Shown here in pieces: positions 11,594-20,947 of a stretch of 26,593 nucleotides of DNA. Origin of the DNA: a virus; UHGV virus genome UHGV-1483403. One strand, written 5' to 3'. The translations under genes and the position numbers were made by a program. Numbering within the stretch: the stretch's first letter is position 1; each line of letters opens with the position of its first letter. Below the pieces are notes generated by a model. The model worked only from the letters and a program-made list of their open reading frames with translations. It did no database searches and was not told where the DNA came from.

Positions 11594-11778
11594 ACGCCAC
11601 AATTCAAACGATACCAGAGCTTCTTATCCAGACACGAGGCAATCAGACCGAAGTGGCGAGGATGCTTTCCTGTGCAAGAGGAACAGTGCTCAAGTACAAC
11701 CGAGACAGCAAAGGTGAGCGTCACGTAATAGTTAACGGCGTCCTGATGGTCAAACAGGGCAGGAGAGGAAGACGATGA
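11590..11778 (+). CDS. ninH: NinH-like protein
   Basis: Track ORF; ...GNQTEVARMLSCARGTVLKY...VNGVLMV parallels lambda NinH; overlaps rusA and Q boundaries. Confidence 0.75.
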   Translation: MNATIQTIPELLIQTRGNQTEVARMLSCARGTVLKYNRDSKGERHVIVNGVLMVKQGRRGRR

Positions 11779-12398
11779 GACTCGAAAGCGTAGCTAAATT
11801 TCATTCGCCAAAAAGCCCGATGATGAGTGACTCACCACGGGCTACGGCTTCTGACTCTCTTTCCGGTACCGATGTGATGGCTGCTATGGGGATGGCGCAA
11901 TCACAAGCAGGATTCGGAATGGCTGCATTCTGCGGTAAGCACGAACTCAGCCAGAACGACAAACAAAAGGCTATCAACTATCTGATGCAATTTGCACACA
12001 AGGTATCGGGGAAATACCGTGGTGTGGCAAAGCTCGAAGGAAATACTAAGGCAAAGGTACTGCAAGTGCTCGCAACATTCGCTTATGCGGATTATTGCCG
12101 TAGTGCCGCGACGCCGGGGGCAAGATGCAGAGATTGCCACGGTACAGGTCGTGCGGTTGATATAGCAAAAACAGAGCAGTGGGGGAGAGTTGTTGAGAAA
12201 GAGTGCGGAAGATGCAAAGGTGTCGGCTATTCAAGAATGCCAGCAAGCGCCGCATATCGCGCTGTAACGATGCTAATCCCAAACCTTACCCAACCCACCT
12301 GGTCACGCACTGTTAAGCCGCTGTATGACGCTCTGGTCGTGCAATGCCACAAGGAAGAGTCAATCGCAGACAACATTTTGAATGAGGTCACACGTTAA
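11775..12398 (+). CDS. Q: late-gene antiterminator Q, lambda type
   Basis: Track ORF; 207 aa, MRLESVAKFHSPKSPMMSDSPRATASDSLSGTDVMAAMG... is essentially identical to lambda Q as I recall it; zinc-binding Cys cluster. Confidence 0.9.
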   Translation: MRLESVAKFHSPKSPMMSDSPRATASDSLSGTDVMAAMGMAQSQAGFGMAAFCGKHELSQNDKQKAINYLMQFAHKVSGKYRGVAKLEGNTKAKVLQVLATFAYADYCRSAATPGARCRDCHGTGRAVDIAKTEQWGRVVEKECGRCKGVGYSRMPASAAYRAVTMLIPNLTQPTWSRTVKPLYDALVVQCHKEESIADNILNEVTR

Positions 12399-12831: not shown

Positions 12832-13155
12832 ATGAAGATGCCAGAAAAACATGACCTTTTAGCCGCCATTCTCGCGGCAAAGGAACAAGGCATCGGGGCA
12901 ATCCTTGCGTTTGCAATGGCGTACCTTCGCGGCAGATATAATGGCGGTGCGTTTACAAAAACAGTAATCGACGCAACGATGTGCGCCATTATCGCCTGGT
13001 TCATTCGTGACCTTCTCGACTTCGCCGGACTAAGTAGCAATCTCGCTTATATAACGAGCGTGTTCATCGGCTACATCGGTACTGACTCGATTGGTTCGCT
13101 TATCAAACGCTTCGCTGCTAAAAAAGCCGGAGTAGAAGATGGTGGAAATCAATAA
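12832..13155 (+). CDS. S: holin S (class I, dual-start holin/antiholin)
   Basis: Track ORF; essentially identical to lambda S107 as I recall it ([35 protein letters not shown]...). Confidence 0.9.
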
Positions 13156-13615
13156 TCAACGTAAGGCGTTCCTCGATATGCTGGCATGGTCAGAAGGAAC
13201 GGATAACGGGCGACAACCGACACGTAACCACGGTTATGATGTTATTGTTGGTGGCGAACTGTTCACTGATTACTCCGATCACCCTCGCAAACTTGTCACG
13301 CTAAACCCAAAACTCAAATCAACAGCCGCCGGACGTTACCAGCTTCTTTCACGCTGGTGGGATGCTTACCGTAAACAGCTTGGCCTGAAAGATTTTTCTC
13401 CAGAAAGCCAGGACGCTGTAGCTCTGCAGCAGATTAAAGAGCGTGGTGCTTTACCGATGATTGACCGCGGCAGTATTCGTCAGGCAATCGACCGTTGCAG
13501 CAATATCTGGGCGTCGTTACCTGGTGCAGGTTACGGTCAGTATGAACATAAAATCGGTGACCTGATTGCCCGATTTAAAAAAGCTGGTGGGGTAGTAAAT
13601 GAAGCTGAGATATAA
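13139..13615 (+). CDS. R: endolysin R (lytic transglycosylase), lambda-like
   Basis: Track ORF; [25 protein letters not shown]... roughly 90 percent identical to lambda R from memory; start overlaps the S stop. Confidence 0.9.
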
Positions 13616-13991
13616 GCTGGTTATTGTTGCCTTCGTTGTTACCGTCATTGGTTCCTTCATCTGGTCTGCTGGGCATTACTACAGCAAATATCAGCACGAA
13701 AAGGAGCGTGCTGATGAGGCTGTACGAAATGCTGAATCAGCAACTGCCATTACCCGTAACGTTCTGCAATCACTGCAAATCATCAATACAGTTATAGAGG
13801 CTAACCAGCATGCAAAAGAGCAGATCGCACTGGACGCATCGGGAGCCTCGGCTGATATCCGGGTTGCTGTTGCGAATGATGATTGCACTAATCGCCATGT
13901 CCCTGCTGGCGCAGTTAAGCGGCTGCAACAATTCGCGAACGGTCTACGTCAAAGTGCCGGTAGTCCCGTTACCGGCCAGCCTGACGGCTGA
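13599..13991 (+). CDS. Rz: i-spanin Rz (non-lambda family)
   Basis: Track ORF; N-terminal transmembrane segment LVIVAFVVTVIGSFIW followed by a coiled-coil-like periplasmic region; overlaps the R stop. Confidence 0.75.
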   Translation: MKLRYKLVIVAFVVTVIGSFIWSAGHYYSKYQHEKERADEAVRNAESATAITRNVLQSLQIINTVIEANQHAKEQIALDASGASADIRVAVANDDCTNRHVPAGAVKRLQQFANGLRQSAGSPVTGQPDG

Positions 13992-14133
13992 CACCCCGCA
14001 ACCGGAAATCCCTGACAACCTGACGTGGGGCCAGAGCCTAGATTTAAACGTCAGTCTCCTATCAGCGCTTGGGCAGTGCAACCGGGATAAGGCAGATATT
14101 AGGCAAGCTGTAAAGAAACAAGCGGGCCAATAA
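13876..14133 (+). CDS. Rz1: o-spanin Rz1 (lipoprotein) in the +1 frame, extending past the Rz stop
   Basis: In-frame ATG at 13876 within track ORF 13810..14133; signal peptide with lipobox LAQLSG|C; proline-rich mature region; ends 142 nt beyond Rz. Confidence 0.6.
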   Translation: MMIALIAMSLLAQLSGCNNSRTVYVKVPVVPLPASLTADTPQPEIPDNLTWGQSLDLNVSLLSALGQCNRDKADIRQAVKKQAGQ

Positions 14134-14155
14134 GCCCGCACTTATGGAGGATTCA
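14122..14155 (-). terminator. strand-specific terminator for the minus-strand moron gene
   Basis: Hairpin GCGGGC-CAATAA-GCCCGC (14122-14139). On the minus transcript it sits 22 nt after the ClpP-like stop and is followed by UUGUUUCUUUA; on the plus (late) transcript no U-run follows. Confidence 0.4.
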
Positions 14156-14160
14156 AAATG

Positions 14161-14721
14161 TTACAGAACCCACCACCTGATCGAATCTGTGGGTATGGTT
14201 GCAGCCTCGACATTCTGGATCATACCCAACTCGGTGGCCCTTCCCGGATCAATGATGGTTGCAGAAGTGATCAAATTAGCCCAGTCAATTTGCTCATCTG
14301 GGGCTACAGCGAGAGCCTCGATATTCATCACCTGCACAAATCTTTGCAAGTCGTCATCCAGACATGCCGCCCATTCCCTAAGCCTGAGGTGATCTGCTTG
14401 TGGGGCGGCAAATCCCCAATGTAAAGGATGTAATAAAAATCGCGAGAGAGGATTAGCAAACCGCTCAGATCCAGCCATGAAAATAACATTTGCTATAGAT
14501 TCCACGTTACTAAGGTTATGTGTCTTCACCTTTACAGGAAGAGACTTAAGAAAGTTGTATGCGGTAAAACCTGCAACGGTATCTCCACCTTTACTAGAGA
14601 TGTAAATCCTGATCTCAGAGGCTGGTTGGTTAGGGCTTGATATCGCTTTGAGGCAAACATCCATAAGGCTGGATACAGAAGCAACTGTCACATCTGTCAT
14701 GAAGTGTACGGTATGGATCAT
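14161..14721 (-). CDS. ClpP-fold (S14-like) serine peptidase homologue, stand-alone, lacking the N-terminal axial-loop region
   Basis: Track ORF; by-eye alignment to E. coli ClpP: IRIYISSKGGDTVAG vs IYLYINSPGGVITAG; NVESIANVIFMAG vs GQAASMGAFLLTAG (Ser aligned to the catalytic Ser); RFANPLSRFLLHPL vs RFCLPNSRVMIHQPL (His aligned to the catalytic His). Convergent to the late operon, between Rz1 and terminase. Confidence 0.65.
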   Translation of the reverse strand: MIHTVHFMTDVTVASVSSLMDVCLKAISSPNQPASEIRIYISSKGGDTVAGFTAYNFLKSLPVKVKTHNLSNVESIANVIFMAGSERFANPLSRFLLHPLHWGFAAPQADHLRLREWAACLDDDLQRFVQVMNIEALAVAPDEQIDWANLITSATIIDPGRATELGMIQNVEAATIPTDSIRWWVL

Positions 14722-14788
14722 TTAAGTTTCCCAGAGATATGCCGCAATTGGCATTTTCATAATGCACATAAAGTGAAAGGTTTTCTGC

Positions 14789-14803
14789 GTAAACCCGGAT
14801 GAA
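14789..14803. promoter_or_regulatory. 15-bp perfect palindrome ATGAAAT-T-ATTTCAT upstream of the ClpP-like gene
   Basis: Exact inverted repeat, about 70-80 bp upstream (minus-strand sense) of the ClpP-like start. Confidence 0.3.
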
Positions 14804-14823
14804 ATTATTTCATGAAGTAAGGC

Positions 14824-14858
14824 ATTACAGAAGCCCTTCATTGAGGGGCTTCGATAAT
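14824..14858 (-). other. conserved stem-loop element, copy 1 (7-bp stem GAAGCCC/GGGCTTC, 9-nt loop TTCATTGAG, 4-bp flanking helix)
   Basis: Same architecture and near-identical loop as copy 2 at 15019-15053; stems differ by compensatory changes; a G-U pair forms only on the minus-strand RNA. Confidence 0.5.
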
Positions 14859-15018
14859 GAAACCGGAATTTATTCTGGGTAACCAGTTACGGCAGTACAG
14901 CGAAACAACCCAAGCCAGTAAGTGGGGAAATAACACTGGCAGCCACTGAAAGATGAACCTCCTGCCTTATGGCAAAAAAGATTCTTTGTGGTGGCGGACT
15001 GATGGAAAGACATCGGTT

Positions 15019-15053
15019 ATTGCAGAGACCATTCAATGAGTGGTCTCGACAAT
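15019..15053 (-). other. conserved stem-loop element, copy 2 (7-bp stem GAGACCA/TGGTCTC, 9-nt loop TTCAATGAG, 4-bp flanking helix)
   Basis: See copy 1; three stem positions and one flank position differ between copies while keeping Watson-Crick pairing. Confidence 0.5.
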
Positions 15054-15183
15054 GGCTTATACCCTACACGGGATAACTTAACTGATATCCCCACAAGCGG
15101 ATAAAGAGATTCTCAATGTCAGGAATCTACTTTTAGTCCTAGTAATGATGAACTAGATATCAGCTGAGTCGCTTGGGTGGTGA

Positions 15184-15420
15184 TTACGATTCTGCTTCAA
15201 ACTCAGAAATTAGTTGATGAACACGTTCAGTATATGATGGGTTAGAACCTAGAAACTCTTCCACTGTCTGAATGGTTTCATCACCCTCCCATTCAAAATG
15301 GCTCACAGGTGACGAATGACCAGCCCTGACTTGGTAGGAGCCATTGTCCAATTTGTCCAGGAATATATAAGTTTCATTATCATGACCTGTATTTCGGTAA
15401 AAAATTTGCTTTGAGTTCAT
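15184..15420 (-). CDS. small acidic hypothetical protein (78 aa)
   Basis: Track ORF; AGGA Shine-Dalgarno 8 nt upstream of the ATG; only 24 bp separate its start from the divergent terminase small-subunit start, so its promoter would lie inside the terminase coding region. Confidence 0.45.
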   Translation of the reverse strand: MNSKQIFYRNTGHDNETYIFLDKLDNGSYQVRAGHSSPVSHFEWEGDETIQTVEEFLGSNPSYTERVHQLISEFEAES

Positions 15421-15444: not shown

Positions 15445-15996
15445 ATGGCACTCACCGACAAACAAGAGATGTTCTGTCGCGAGTACCTCATCGATTTAAA
15501 CGCCACACAAGCGGCTATTCGGGCGGGGTACAGCGCAAAGACAGCTAACCGTACCGCATCCGAAAACATGTCAAAACCTGACATCCAATTCAGAATCGCC
15601 GAACTGAAAGCGCAACGCAATGATCTTGTTGGTATTAATGCAGAATATGTGCTTAATCGCCTTATTGAAATCGACCAGATGGATGTGCTCGACATTCTCC
15701 TGCAAAACGGTGAGTTAAAGCCCATTAAAGACTGGCCTAAGGTATGGCGCACAACGTTATCAGGAATGGATGTTGTGGAGATGGTATCCGCAGATAGTGC
15801 TGCTCTCCTGAAGAAAATCAAATGGCCTGATAAGGTTAAAAACCTTGAGTTGCTCGGGCGTCATGTTTCTGTTCAGGCGTTTAAAGACAACGTCAAAAAT
15901 GAAGTGACTGGTGCTGACGGAGGACCAGTCAGAACAGAAATTACCAACTTAACGCCGGAGCAGGCTGCAGAGGCGTATAGAAAAATGATGGGCTAA
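15445..15996 (+). CDS. terminase small subunit (Terminase_2-like)
   Basis: Track ORF; N-terminal HTH-like segment ([24 protein letters not shown]) typical of small terminases; immediately upstream of the large subunit. Confidence 0.8.
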
Positions 15997-15998
15997 GT

Positions 15999-17621
15999 AT
16001 GCCGTTACCATTCCCCTTCGATTTTAAACATCCTGATTACCAGATGGTTTTTGAATGGCGGATGGAACGCTTACAGCGCATTCGCCAGAACCCTGAAATA
16101 TTGCCAGCACTAAAACAGTTTTACCGAACCAACCCGGCTCAGTTCATCATCGACTGGGGCATGACAACGGACCCGCGTAATATTGATTATGGCCTGCCGG
16201 TGACCATTCCGTTTTTACTCTTCCCTAAGCAGGAGGAGTGGATCCACTGGATTATGGAACGCTGGGGTAATCGGGAGAATGGTATTACCGAAAAATCCCG
16301 TGAAATGGGGCTCAGTTGGACCGCGATCGGACTGGCCTGCTCGCTTTGTCTCTTCAACAAAGAAATGGTTATCGGTTTCGGCTCCCGTAAAGAGGAATAC
16401 GTCGACAGCACCGGTGACCCGAAAGCATTGTTCTGGAAGGCGCGCAAGTTCGTGGAAACACTACCTGTAGAGTTTCGCGGTTCGTGGAGCGAGAAGAAGC
16501 ACGCGCCATATATGCGTGTTGAGTTTCCTGAAACTGGTGCCGTTATCAAAGGCGAGGCTGGCGATAATATTGGTCGTGGTGACCGTACCACGCTTTATCT
16601 GGTTGATGAGGCTGCATTCCTTCAGCGTCCTCTGCTGATTGATGCGGCGTTGTCACAAACGACGCGTTGCCGTATCGACCTGAGTTCGGTTAACGGCATG
16701 GCGAACCCGTTCGCGCAGAAGCGTCACGGCGGGAAGATACCGGTATTCACATTCCACTGGCGGGATGATCCTCGCAAGGATGAAGAGTGGTATCGCAGGG
16801 AATGCGAGAAAATCGATAATCCGGTGGTGGTGGCACAGGAACTTGATCTGAACTACAGCGCATCAGCGGAAGGCGTCCTGATTCCATCCGAATGGGTACA
16901 GGCTGCCGTTGATGCGCATATCAAACTGGGTATCCAGCCAACAGGCAAACGACTTGGCGCGATGGATGTCGCTGATGAAGGCAGGGACAAAAATGCCTTT
17001 TCCACCCGTCATGGCTTCCTCCTGGAAAATGTGCGGGAATGGTCTGGTGTGGGTAGCGACATTTATCAGTCCGTCGAGAAGGTCTTCGGTTTTTGCGAAC
17101 AGGACAACCTCGAAGAGTTTCGCTTTGACGAGGACGGGCTGGGCGCTGGCGTTCGCGGCGATGCACGCGCTATCAACGAACTGCGTAACGCTGCGCGCCG
17201 ACCGTCAATACTCGCCACACCGTTTCGAGGTAGTGGCGCGGTATTTGATCCGGACGACGAAGCGGTGCGCGGTGACAACGGACAGGCCGCCCGCCTGAAC
17301 AAGGACTTCTTCGCTAACGCCAAAGCCCAGAGCTGGTGGCGGTTACGTAAACTTTTTCAGAATACCTGGCGCGCCGTGGTTGAAGGTATGGATTACAACC
17401 CGGACGAAATCATCTCAATCAGCAGTAGCATGGCACTCAAAGATAAACTCATCATCGAGCTTTCGCAGCCGACCTATTCCATTAATGGTGTGGGGAAAAT
17501 CGTTATTGATAAACAGCCTGATGGAACCCGGTCGCCAAACCTTGCCGACTCGGTGATGATCAGCTACGCGCCAATGAATTCAGCCCTGAATATCTGGGAG
17601 CTGCTAGGGAGACAGGCCTGA
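15999..17621 (+). CDS. terminase large subunit (ATPase plus nuclease)
   Basis: Track ORF; 540 aa; Walker B-like [10 protein letters not shown]; deviant Walker A region around EKSREMGLS; position between the small subunit and portal. Confidence 0.8.
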
Positions 17622-19726: not shown

Positions 19727-20947
19727 ATGAAATATTTTTTCAATACCCGGCTGGGGGAAACCCGCTATCAGCTGGCTGACGGCTCGCTGCTGTGCAAAGA
19801 CGTGCCGATAGGTCGAACGGGTAAGCAGCTCTACGGCGCTGCCGATCTGCCAAACCTCAAACCCGACAAGCTCGGTGAGATAGTCGTAACGCGTTCTCCT
19901 GAGCAGGTATTCAATCCGGCCACGCTCGCCTCATTCGAAGGGATGAGCATCACGATCCTGCATCCTGAAGATGAAAACGGGAATGTGCGGCTGGTAAATC
20001 CCGAGAACTGGAAAGAGCTTGCTGTCGGGCATCTTCAGAATGTGCGGCGCGGGACTGGTGACCAGTCTGATTTGATGCTGGCTGACCTTATCGTCAAAGA
20101 CGAAAACGCCATTCAGCTTATCGAAGATGGCCTGCGTGAAGTGTCGTGCGGCTATGACGCGGAGTACGAGCAGACCGAGCCAGGTAAAGCCGAGCAGGTC
20201 GATATTACCGGAAACCATGTGGCTCTTGTCCCCAAAGGCAGAGCCGGAAATCGTTGTGCAATTGGAGACAGAGACACAATGGCAAATCAAAAGAAAAACT
20301 GGTGGAACCGCATGCGTGCAGCCATCAAGACAGGAGATGCCGACACCATGAACGAACTGGTGGAGTCGGCTCCCGCATCGGTTACAGGAGATGAGGGGGA
20401 TTTGCCGCAGGGCGTTAATCTCAACATCAACCTGTCCCCGCAGCAACCACTACCGGACAAAGCACCAGAGATGGGTGGAGGTCCAACCGGCGACAGTGAT
20501 GATGACCTCAAAACATTACTGAAAGCCCTGCTGGCTAAGCTGGAAGGAAATGCCACGGGCGATAATGATAATAAGCCTGACGATAATCCGACCGGTGACG
20601 GCGAGGATGATGAAGAGGAAACCACGATTACTGGTGACTCAGCCTGGCGTGCCGAAGTTATCGTTCCGGGTATCGATCTGAGCCGTAAGATGAAACCGAC
20701 CGCGTTCAAACGCGAGGTTCTGGCTTCCGCTGACAAAACGCTGGTTCGCCAGATAGTCGGTGATGCGGATATCCGCAAATTACCGAAACAATCGGTCAAC
20801 ATGGCGTTTAATGCCGTGTCTGAGATTGCCAAAGGGCGAAACACCCGCGCCACCACCGGCGATGCACAGCGCCCAAACATGGGCATGACCAGTATCGCTT
20901 CCCTGAACAAACAAAACGCTGAATTCTGGGCAAACCGTAAAGGGTAA
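19727..20947 (+). CDS. putative scaffold / prohead core protein (DUF2213-like) with an acidic low-complexity linker
   Basis: Track ORF; 406 aa; central Asp/Glu/Gly-rich low-complexity region; position between the morphogenesis and capsid genes. Confidence 0.55.
   Translation: MKYFFNTRLGETRYQLADGSLLCKDVPIGRTGKQLYGAADLPNLKPDKLGEIVVTRSPEQVFNPATLASFEGMSITILHPEDENGNVRLVNPENWKELAVGHLQNVRRGTGDQSDLMLADLIVKDENAIQLIEDGLREVSCGYDAEYEQTEPGKAEQVDITGNHVALVPKGRAGNRCAIGDRDTMANQKKNWWNRMRAAIKTGDADTMNELVESAPASVTGDEGDLPQGVNLNINLSPQQPLPDKAPEMGGGPTGDSDDDLKTLLKALLAKLEGNATGDNDNKPDDNPTGDGEDDEEETTITGDSAWRAEVIVPGIDLSRKMKPTAFKREVLASADKTLVRQIVGDADIRKLPKQSVNMAFNAVSEIAKGRNTRATTGDAQRPNMGMTSIASLNKQNAEFWANRKG

Follow-up and report, generated by a model that had tools for sequence, protein, structure and literature searches.

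The 26,593-nucleotide (nt) UHGV virus genome UHGV-1483403, here called the window, carries between its lysis and packaging genes a discrete insert of about 690 bp whose one gene, a minus-strand open reading frame (ORF) of 186 residues, encodes a protein with the ClpP fold. We consider it fairly probable that this insert is a small mobile moron whose single gene codes for a 'short ClpP' similar in type to PpClpP1, the ClpP1 of Pseudomonas plecoglossicida. The original prediction, read from the letters of the window, had described an ATG-started ORF for a stand-alone ClpP-fold protease homologue that keeps Ser and His at the catalytic positions but lacks some 25-40 N-terminal residues, lies antisense between the lysis cassette and the terminase genes with a strand-specific terminator of its own, and is an accessory gene rather than a displaced prohead protease; each of these statements is borne out by the results below. 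The absence of the triad Asp, the polar docking pocket and the identification of PpClpP1 as nearest relative are additions of the present analysis.

Fold and family membership

The profile and structure searches that were run place the protein in the ClpP fold. Pfam CLP_protease (PF00574) matches at 46.5 bits (E 4.9e-12, against a gathering cutoff of 20.2), and among the PHROGs phrog_94, 'head maturation protease', matches at E 5.7e-22 together with several further ClpP-type families. The AlphaFold2 model, built from 38 homologues, has a mean predicted local distance difference test score (pLDDT) of 91.5 and a predicted template-modelling score (pTM) of 0.87, and a Foldseek search of the PDB returns dozens of solved ClpPs at probability 1.00 over 175-185 columns. 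Canonical ClpPs superpose on the model with template-modelling scores (TM) of 0.73-0.79 at 18-23% identity; the best PDB match by a wide margin is not one of them but 9uxt, PpClpP1. A fold search of BFVD gave no viral structure closer than PpClpP1 (TM at most 0.79, versus 0.90).

NCBIfam models for canonical ClpP and for prohead proteases match as well, but far below their curated cutoffs: 26.1 versus 308.6 bits for TIGR00493, 35.4 versus 249 for the PRK00277 equivalog, and 48.2 (E 1e-12) versus 120 for NF045542, the ClpP-related prohead protease. With canonical ClpP (MEROPS S14; TIGR00493) the window protein shares the fold, including the handle helix, and has Ser, His and Gly-Gly in register; it differs in lacking residues 1-26, Asp171 and the Glu/Arg pair that precedes it. 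It is not a canonical ClpP, as equivalog scores, triad Asp, N-terminus and docking pocket all indicate, nor is it a prohead protease, given its score against NF045542 and its location outside the head module. In sequence and structure it has the features of a PpClpP1-type short ClpP.

A profile of the enterobacterial clade to which it belongs retrieved 201 cluster representatives at E <= 1e-30 and 3145 at E <= 1e-10, most of them 180-200 aa long. Distant members are found in candidate-phyla bacteria and in delta- and alpha-proteobacteria, in varied chromosomal contexts; one of them appears to follow grpE-dnaK, as read solely from ORF translations. The closest representative outside the enterobacteria sits on a contig of just 931 bp, which says nothing of its neighbours. 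From the breadth of the family and these chromosomal contexts, short ClpP is therefore a broad cellular family, with the window protein in one of its clades. The label that genome pipelines attach to such genes is 'ATP-dependent Clp protease proteolytic subunit', and in one phage record a homologue is entered as 'head maturation protease'; as to function, neither label is likely to be right.

PpClpP1 as the nearest characterised relative

The window protein superposes on PpClpP1 (PDB 9UXT) with TM 0.90 and a root-mean-square deviation of 1.7 A at 33% identity, and phmmer aligns its residues 3-185 with PpClpP1 at E 2.3e-30. The two proteins are alike in length class (183 vs 186 aa), in aligning over their full length, in their N-terminal truncation, in the retained Ser and His followed by a non-acidic third residue (Pro in PpClpP1, Ala in the window protein) and in the absence of the C-terminal extension of canonical ClpP. 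They are unlike in genomic setting, PpClpP1 being chromosomal and the window protein belonging to an enterobacterial clade that prophages carry as an antisense moron.

PpClpP1 is N-terminally truncated, has Ser-His-Pro in place of the triad, and forms a homotetradecamer with an axial pore of 42.7 A, compared with 25.2 A modelled for its canonical paralogue, and with peptidase activity about 13-fold lower (PMC12900304; PLoS Pathog, February 2026). Changing its Ser or His to Ala abolishes activity, and changing its Pro to Ala or Asp leaves about 60% (PMC12900304). Acyldepsipeptide (ADEP) does not stabilise it, and ClpX is not pulled down with it. In co-purification it forms a heterotetradecamer with its canonical paralogue; this complex is more active and is served by ClpX via the canonical ring (PMC12900304). 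No ClpP assembly alone degraded casein or the GFP-ssrA substrate, and deletion of PpClpP1 caused growth and motility defects; phages are unmentioned in that paper (PMC12900304).

PpClpP1 and about 200 relatives in Pseudomonas, Stutzerimonas and Azotobacter (Pseudomonadaceae) are chromosomal and not in prophages. Their neighbourhood is conserved, with KGG stress-protein genes and DUF6555 (Pseudomonas loci L049-L054), an association not discussed in the PpClpP1 paper (PMC12900304). This flanking hints at a stress or stationary-phase role for the PpClpP1 clade.

Catalytic residues, truncation and selection

Two alignments were made, one of 38 close relatives and one of 39 distant family members with E. 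coli ClpP. Five residues of the window protein, G45, G46, S75, R87 and H98, are invariant across both. Ser75 and His98 stand in register with Ser97 and His122 of ClpP, and G45-G46 with Gly67-Gly68; Ser, His and the two Gly do not vary among 38 close and 41 distant members, even where identity falls to 25%. No triad Asp is present, the Asp171 column holding Ala154 in the window protein and varying among Pro, Ala, Gly, Glu, Ser and Thr across the family. Residues 1-26 of mature E. coli ClpP, which comprise the axial loop and helix A, have no counterpart, in keeping with the missing N-terminal stretch of the original prediction. The hydrophobic pocket of E. coli ClpP for ClpX, ClpA and ADEP, formed by Y60, Y62, F82, I90, M92, F112 and L114, is matched by R38, Y40, S60, H68, L70, F88 and N90, and four of the seven positions are polar in the window protein (Y60 to R38, F82 to S60, I90 to H68, L114 to N90). 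A polar pocket of this kind is consistent with a protein that would not dock ClpX.

Alleles that are 72-80% identical in DNA differ at proportions of 0.70-0.83 for synonymous (pS) and 0.14-0.15 for non-synonymous (pN) sites, and dN/dS is about 0.08 where computable, indicating strong purifying selection. Because this selection goes together with invariant Ser, His and G45-G46, the comparison favours an enzyme that is active over a poison subunit without catalysis, and speaks against a decaying remnant.

The ATG at 14721 is taken as the real start because most homologues begin at the same MxHTxxF, and an in-frame TAA (14722-14724) lies immediately 5' of it. In the otherwise identical copy of E. 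coli W21 this codon is GAA (L001 15723-15725), and for that reason the Prokaryotic Genome Annotation Pipeline (PGAP) gives W21 a protein of 199 aa; at the head of the 99% cluster (P0001) stands a form of 238 aa. Both longer forms (199 and 238 aa) were rejected, given the TAA one codon upstream in the window and the MxHT with which most homologues begin, and the N-terminal extensions of 13-52 residues in some pipeline annotations are probably artefacts.

A mobile cassette with its own terminator

The ORF stands antisense between Rz/Rz1 and the small terminase gene (15445), both on the plus strand (Table 1). Phage vB_EcoM-689R2, whose lysis and head genes are 86-97% identical to those of the window, has its Rz and small terminase genes just 62 bp apart, and in this close relative the ClpP-like cassette is evidently dispensable. 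Of those 62 bp, the 39 that follow Rz match window positions 14822-14860, a hairpin, and because this hairpin directly follows Rz in vB_EcoM-689R2 the cassette is delimited as 14134..14821. E. coli W21 has the same coding sequence (CDS), 100% identical and at the same slot, in a prophage unrelated to the window phage, with a contractile (myovirus) tail and an S49 prohead protease; window and W21 are 98.7% identical from 13797 to 14859 and diverge beyond. The GC content of the cassette is 0.448, that of the window 0.494 and that of the head genes 0.53-0.57. The cassette is thus a discrete insert that moves between unrelated phage backbones.

The strand-specific terminator consists of GCGGGCTTATTGGCCCGC followed by TTGTTTCTTT on the minus strand, its stem-loop at 14139..14122 beginning 22 nt past the stop codon of the ClpP-like gene, and it is identical in a second prophage carrying the cassette. 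Upstream of the gene, promoter-like hexamers read by eye are weak (TTTACG 14793..14788, 17-nt spacer, TATGTG 14770..14765); a better pair lies upstream of a 79%-identical allele, and Pantoea-clade genes share a conserved upstream motif of their own. A perfect 7-1-7 palindrome, ATGAAATTATTTCAT (ATGAAAT-N-ATTTCAT, 14799..14813), sits just upstream of the candidate -35 hexamer. It is kept in the W21 copy, with the central base alone differing, and resembles CATGAGAATATTTCATG upstream of the 79%-identical allele; by its form it may be an operator or activator site.

The Rz-cos/terminase junction is the slot that bor occupies in lambda. Like lambda bor and P22 sieA, the ClpP-like gene is a single gene with its own terminator, antisense to the late genes and of lower GC than its neighbours; unlike Bor, a lipoprotein, and SieA, an inner-membrane protein, its product is an unrelated protein, predicted to be a cytoplasmic self-compartmentalising peptidase.

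Relatives and their genomic contexts

A word-indexed search returned 63 proteins 46-99% identical to the window protein, the full-length ones mostly of 178-187 aa, from Klebsiella, Escherichia, Citrobacter, Pectobacterium, Pantoea, Erwinia, Serratia, Leclercia and Proteus and, in one case, Chromobacterium. About 20 loci were surveyed for context, and the statements that follow cover those with classifiable neighbours. Every such locus of this enterobacterial clade is a prophage or phage, and at all but the ambiguous L004 the ClpP-like gene is opposite in strand to both flanking phage genes. The original prediction had asked whether homologues recur on the opposite strand at the lysis-terminase junction of other prophages. 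They do, but they are also found at several other sites, in all at least seven different accessory slots.

Besides the window and W21, the slot between Rz/Rz1 and terminase holds the gene, always antisense, in five metagenomic or isolate contigs with differing holins, Q proteins and terminases, and in an HK97-like prophage that has an HK97-type prohead protease. Elsewhere it is found, antisense again, between Q (with an nSTAND NTPase gene) and holin in a prophage with its own 285-aa ClpP-type head protease; behind the tail-fibre genes, where the prophage ends and a DNA invertase is the neighbour; within immI of P22-like prophages, downstream of mnt, which is the sieA slot of P22; in the N-erf slot of the early-left operon of Proteus prophages; and between tail fibre and lysis genes in Chromobacterium. 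Pantoea and relatives have it within Mu-like tail/baseplate modules, antisense except in the ambiguous L004. An arc-ant immI cassette with an antisense ClpP-like gene also lies between tail genes L and K of lambda-like phages (PhiR12_1, PhiR12_4, PhiR12_5).

At immI the ClpP-like gene is translationally coupled to a gene for a Mnt-like ribbon-helix-helix (RHH) repressor and divergent from arc-ant, and this RHH partner is confined to the immI clade. In this subclade (L047 4753-5537; L048 4753-5537; L061 4776-5560; L044 5747-6537) the ClpP-like gene overlaps the stop codon of the Mnt-like RHH gene and moves together with arc-ant as an immI cassette. In P22 itself sieA, orf59a and mnt are adjacent, and the paper on P22 SieA mentions neither a protease nor Clp (PMC10883804).

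Among the contexts surveyed we found no conserved partner gene and no relative inside a head module; co-oriented homologues within head modules, which the original prediction had named as speaking for an ordinary prohead protease, were thus not found in about 20 contexts. Carrier prophages have prohead proteases of their own, of S49, HK97 or ClpP type. Detectable relatives are present in 174 of 5426 complete E. coli genomes (~3%), all chromosomal and none on plasmids, and in 6 of 50,697 phage records. A 182-aa ORF upstream of a 78%-identical allele gave no matches and is clade-specific. An nSTAND1 NTPase gene lies on the late-gene strand between Q and the ClpP-like gene (L046 6722-8113), and a KAP-family NTPase gene lies antisense between Q and holin in a related prophage, that of E. 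coli M11957 (L062 2011-3342); both NTPases are likely defence candidates.

Proposed function and alternative explanations

By analogy with PpClpP1, at 33% identity, the window protein would form a two-ring tetradecamer with a permanently open axial pore and a modest, Ser/His-dependent peptidase activity. It would not dock ClpX or ClpA itself, and it might stack on a ring of host ClpP to give hybrid ClpXP or ClpAP of altered output; for co-assembly of such a paralogue with host ClpP, the PpClpP1 hybrid now provides a precedent from experiment (PMC12900304). Genome position and antisense orientation suggest that the gene would be transcribed in the lysogen from its own promoter, and in P22-like prophages from the mnt promoter. 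The best support for expression in the lysogen is the operon shared with mnt in P22-like prophages, P22 mnt being a prophage-expressed repressor gene. On these analogies the short ClpP probably changes protein degradation in the lysogen, and the pay-off could be that the lysogen is shielded from other phages, or that lysogeny or proteostasis is made more stable.

Several observations weigh against this explanation. The Pseudomonas clade is chromosomal, beside KGG stress genes and not in prophages, and the biology of PpClpP1 may not be transferable to the window protein; oligomeric state, activity and contact with enterobacterial ClpP are extrapolated across 33% identity, and identity to E. coli ClpP itself is merely ~18-21%. 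E169-R170 of E. coli ClpP, the pair before the triad Asp that acts as an inter-ring 'oligomerisation sensor', is replaced by T152 and S153. A strict sigma-70 scan upstream of the ClpP-like gene gave no promoter, and because of this result the promoter counts as inferred. L004 has a mixed-strand neighbourhood, and PADLOC (PADLOC-DB v2) gave no match for the window protein and four clade members.

Two roles, neither a strict alternative to a mobile short ClpP, would give it its pay-off. One is anti-phage defence or superinfection exclusion, in which the open-pore protease would degrade those proteins of incoming phages that are unfolded or freshly synthesised (suggested targets are ejection proteins, scaffolds and early proteins) or trigger abortive infection. 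The relatives occupy classic prophage defence and moron slots, in P22-like prophages the very place of sieA, genes for nSTAND, KAP NTPase, AbiTii or YafO lie near some of them, and their distribution is patchy, at ~3% of E. coli genomes; moron slots, however, hold non-defence cargo too, the related chromosomal clades lie in stress or proteostasis neighbourhoods rather than defence islands, and besides the negative PADLOC result our literature searches found no prophage-borne short ClpP, ClpP-like moron or defence protein of this kind described. We hold a defence role to be possible, with the odds somewhat against it. The same guarded estimate applies to a role in host fitness or lysogeny maintenance, where ATP-independent peptidase capacity, or hybrid barrels that retune host ClpXP and ClpAP, would improve survival under stress or in stationary phase or alter the turnover of Ant, O-like or repressor proteins. 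The greater activity of the PpClpP1P2 hybrid and the growth and motility defects of the PpClpP1 deletion (PMC12900304) favour it, as do the KGG genes flanking the Pseudomonas clade, the distant member beside grpE-dnaK (from ORF translations alone) and the operon shared with Mnt beside arc-ant; the immI region is absent from most carrier prophages, however, and sequence identity is low for hybrid formation with enterobacterial ClpP. Placement, then, fits defence or exclusion, and the chromosomal relatives and PpClpP1 data fit proteostasis or ClpXP tuning. A bolder version, on which we would place a still more tentative bet, is that a ClpP barrel which is always open and independent of ClpX serves enterobacterial prophages as a weapon or rewiring device expressed in the lysogen, by destroying unfolded proteins of superinfecting phages or by capping one face of host ClpP and so reprogramming ClpXP and ClpAP; if true, this would be a new single-gene class of prophage immunity or host takeover via a self-compartmentalised protease.

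Explanations that do away with a short ClpP moron fare far worse. That the gene is a ClpP-type prohead protease displaced by recombination, or its decaying remnant, might be read from its best profile matches (phrog_94 at 5.7e-22 and NF045542 at 1e-12), which are head-maturation families, and from the one phage record so labelled, and the protein does resemble these proteases in being a phage-borne ClpP-fold domain of similar size, without an N-terminal gate and with comparable profile scores. It differs in that its gene lies outside the head module, not co-oriented and neither fused nor adjacent to scaffold or capsid genes; a different protease candidate is present in the window phage, and the ClpP-like gene is missing altogether from a close relative. 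Its score of 48 bits falls short of the 120-bit cutoff, no relative was found within a head module, carrier phages encode proteases besides it, no viral structure comes nearer than PpClpP1 (TM at most 0.79 vs 0.90), and the ORF is intact, under purifying selection and conserved in length (178-187 aa), with its own terminator and antisense at many different slots. This explanation is largely refuted and retains very little credence. Equally improbable is a toxin whose antitoxin is the upstream RHH protein: in one clade the gene does overlap the stop codon of an RHH protein of 82-84 aa with Arc, FitA-like and HicB Pfam matches, but that protein matches Repressor_Mnt within a canonical arc-ant immI cassette, and the window, like the majority of the other contexts, has the ClpP-like gene on its own.

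It was not until 2026 that ClpP paralogues of this short kind, truncated at the N-terminus, were characterised, as a chromosomal trait of one Pseudomonas species. Their sister clade emerges here as cargo moving among prophages of Escherichia, Klebsiella, Citrobacter, Pectobacterium, Pantoea, Proteus and others, each time in slots that are probably expressed in the lysogen. The enzyme type is already known; its mobile deployment, apparently on the side of the lysogen, is new. The family gains a selectable context and a simple test system, a 690-bp cassette in E. coli, in which the role of an ungated ClpP in the cell and the manipulation or exploitation of host ClpP by phages can be addressed. 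Annotation is corrected as well, for the pipeline label 'Clp protease', the phage-record label 'head maturation protease' and the N-terminal extensions.

The window phage and further features

The window phage is a lambdoid prophage of mosaic make-up: the left half is akin to mEp235/HK97-like phages, the packaging and head genes to those of vB_EcoM-606R2/689R2. The features around the ClpP-like gene are listed in Table 1.

Table 1. Positions of the ClpP-like cassette and of surrounding genes in the window
Feature	Position	Strand	Basis or remark
Q antiterminator	11775..12398	+	Pfam Antiterm
Holin, endolysin, Rz/Rz1	12832..14133	+	
Rz/Rz1 spanin genes, end of lysis cassette	13599..14133	+	Convergent with ClpP-like gene; homologous loci annotated DUF2570, Rz1, LysC
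Intrinsic terminator	14112..14139	-	Overlaps 3' end of Rz1; stem-loop 14139..14122, then TTGTTTCTTT
Inserted cassette, ~690 bp (terminator, ORF, ~100-bp 5' region)	14134..14821		blastn boundaries against phages without the cassette
ClpP-like serine peptidase CDS, 186 aa, ATG start	14161..14721	-	ORF list, profiles, AlphaFold2 model, alignments
Cassette 5' region	14722..14821	-	Weak candidate promoter and palindrome; conserved in E. coli W21 (L001)
Inverted repeat (hairpin) at right edge of cassette	14823..14859		Part of recipient phage backbone, not of cassette
Small terminase gene, start of packaging/head module	15445..15996	+	
Large terminase gene	15999..17621	+	
Portal, Mu F-like protein, DUF2213 protease/scaffold candidate, major capsid protein	After terminase genes	+	
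Head-module protease/scaffold candidate	19727..20947	+	DUF2213, phrog_530, phrog_12864

The hairpin at the right edge of the cassette is one of two similar inverted repeats with 17-18-nt arms about 200 bp apart, at 14823-14859 (ATTaCAGAaGCCcTTCA/TGAGgGGcTTCGAtAAT) and 15019-15053 (ATTGCAGAGACCATTCA/TGAGTGGTCTCGACAAT), which may act in termination or bind a protein. A second antisense ORF, of 78 aa (15184..15420, minus strand, GC 0.39), immediately precedes the small terminase gene; Pfam, PHROG, PADLOC and the phage database gave no match for it, and it may be either spurious or a further small moron. Positions 14814-15105 are ~90-96% identical to a region near the right end of HK97, HK022 and mEp-type phages, where it lies downstream of a KilA-N gene and HK97p61; here the segment is caught between the ClpP cassette and a terminase that is not of HK97 type, and so marks a mosaic joint.

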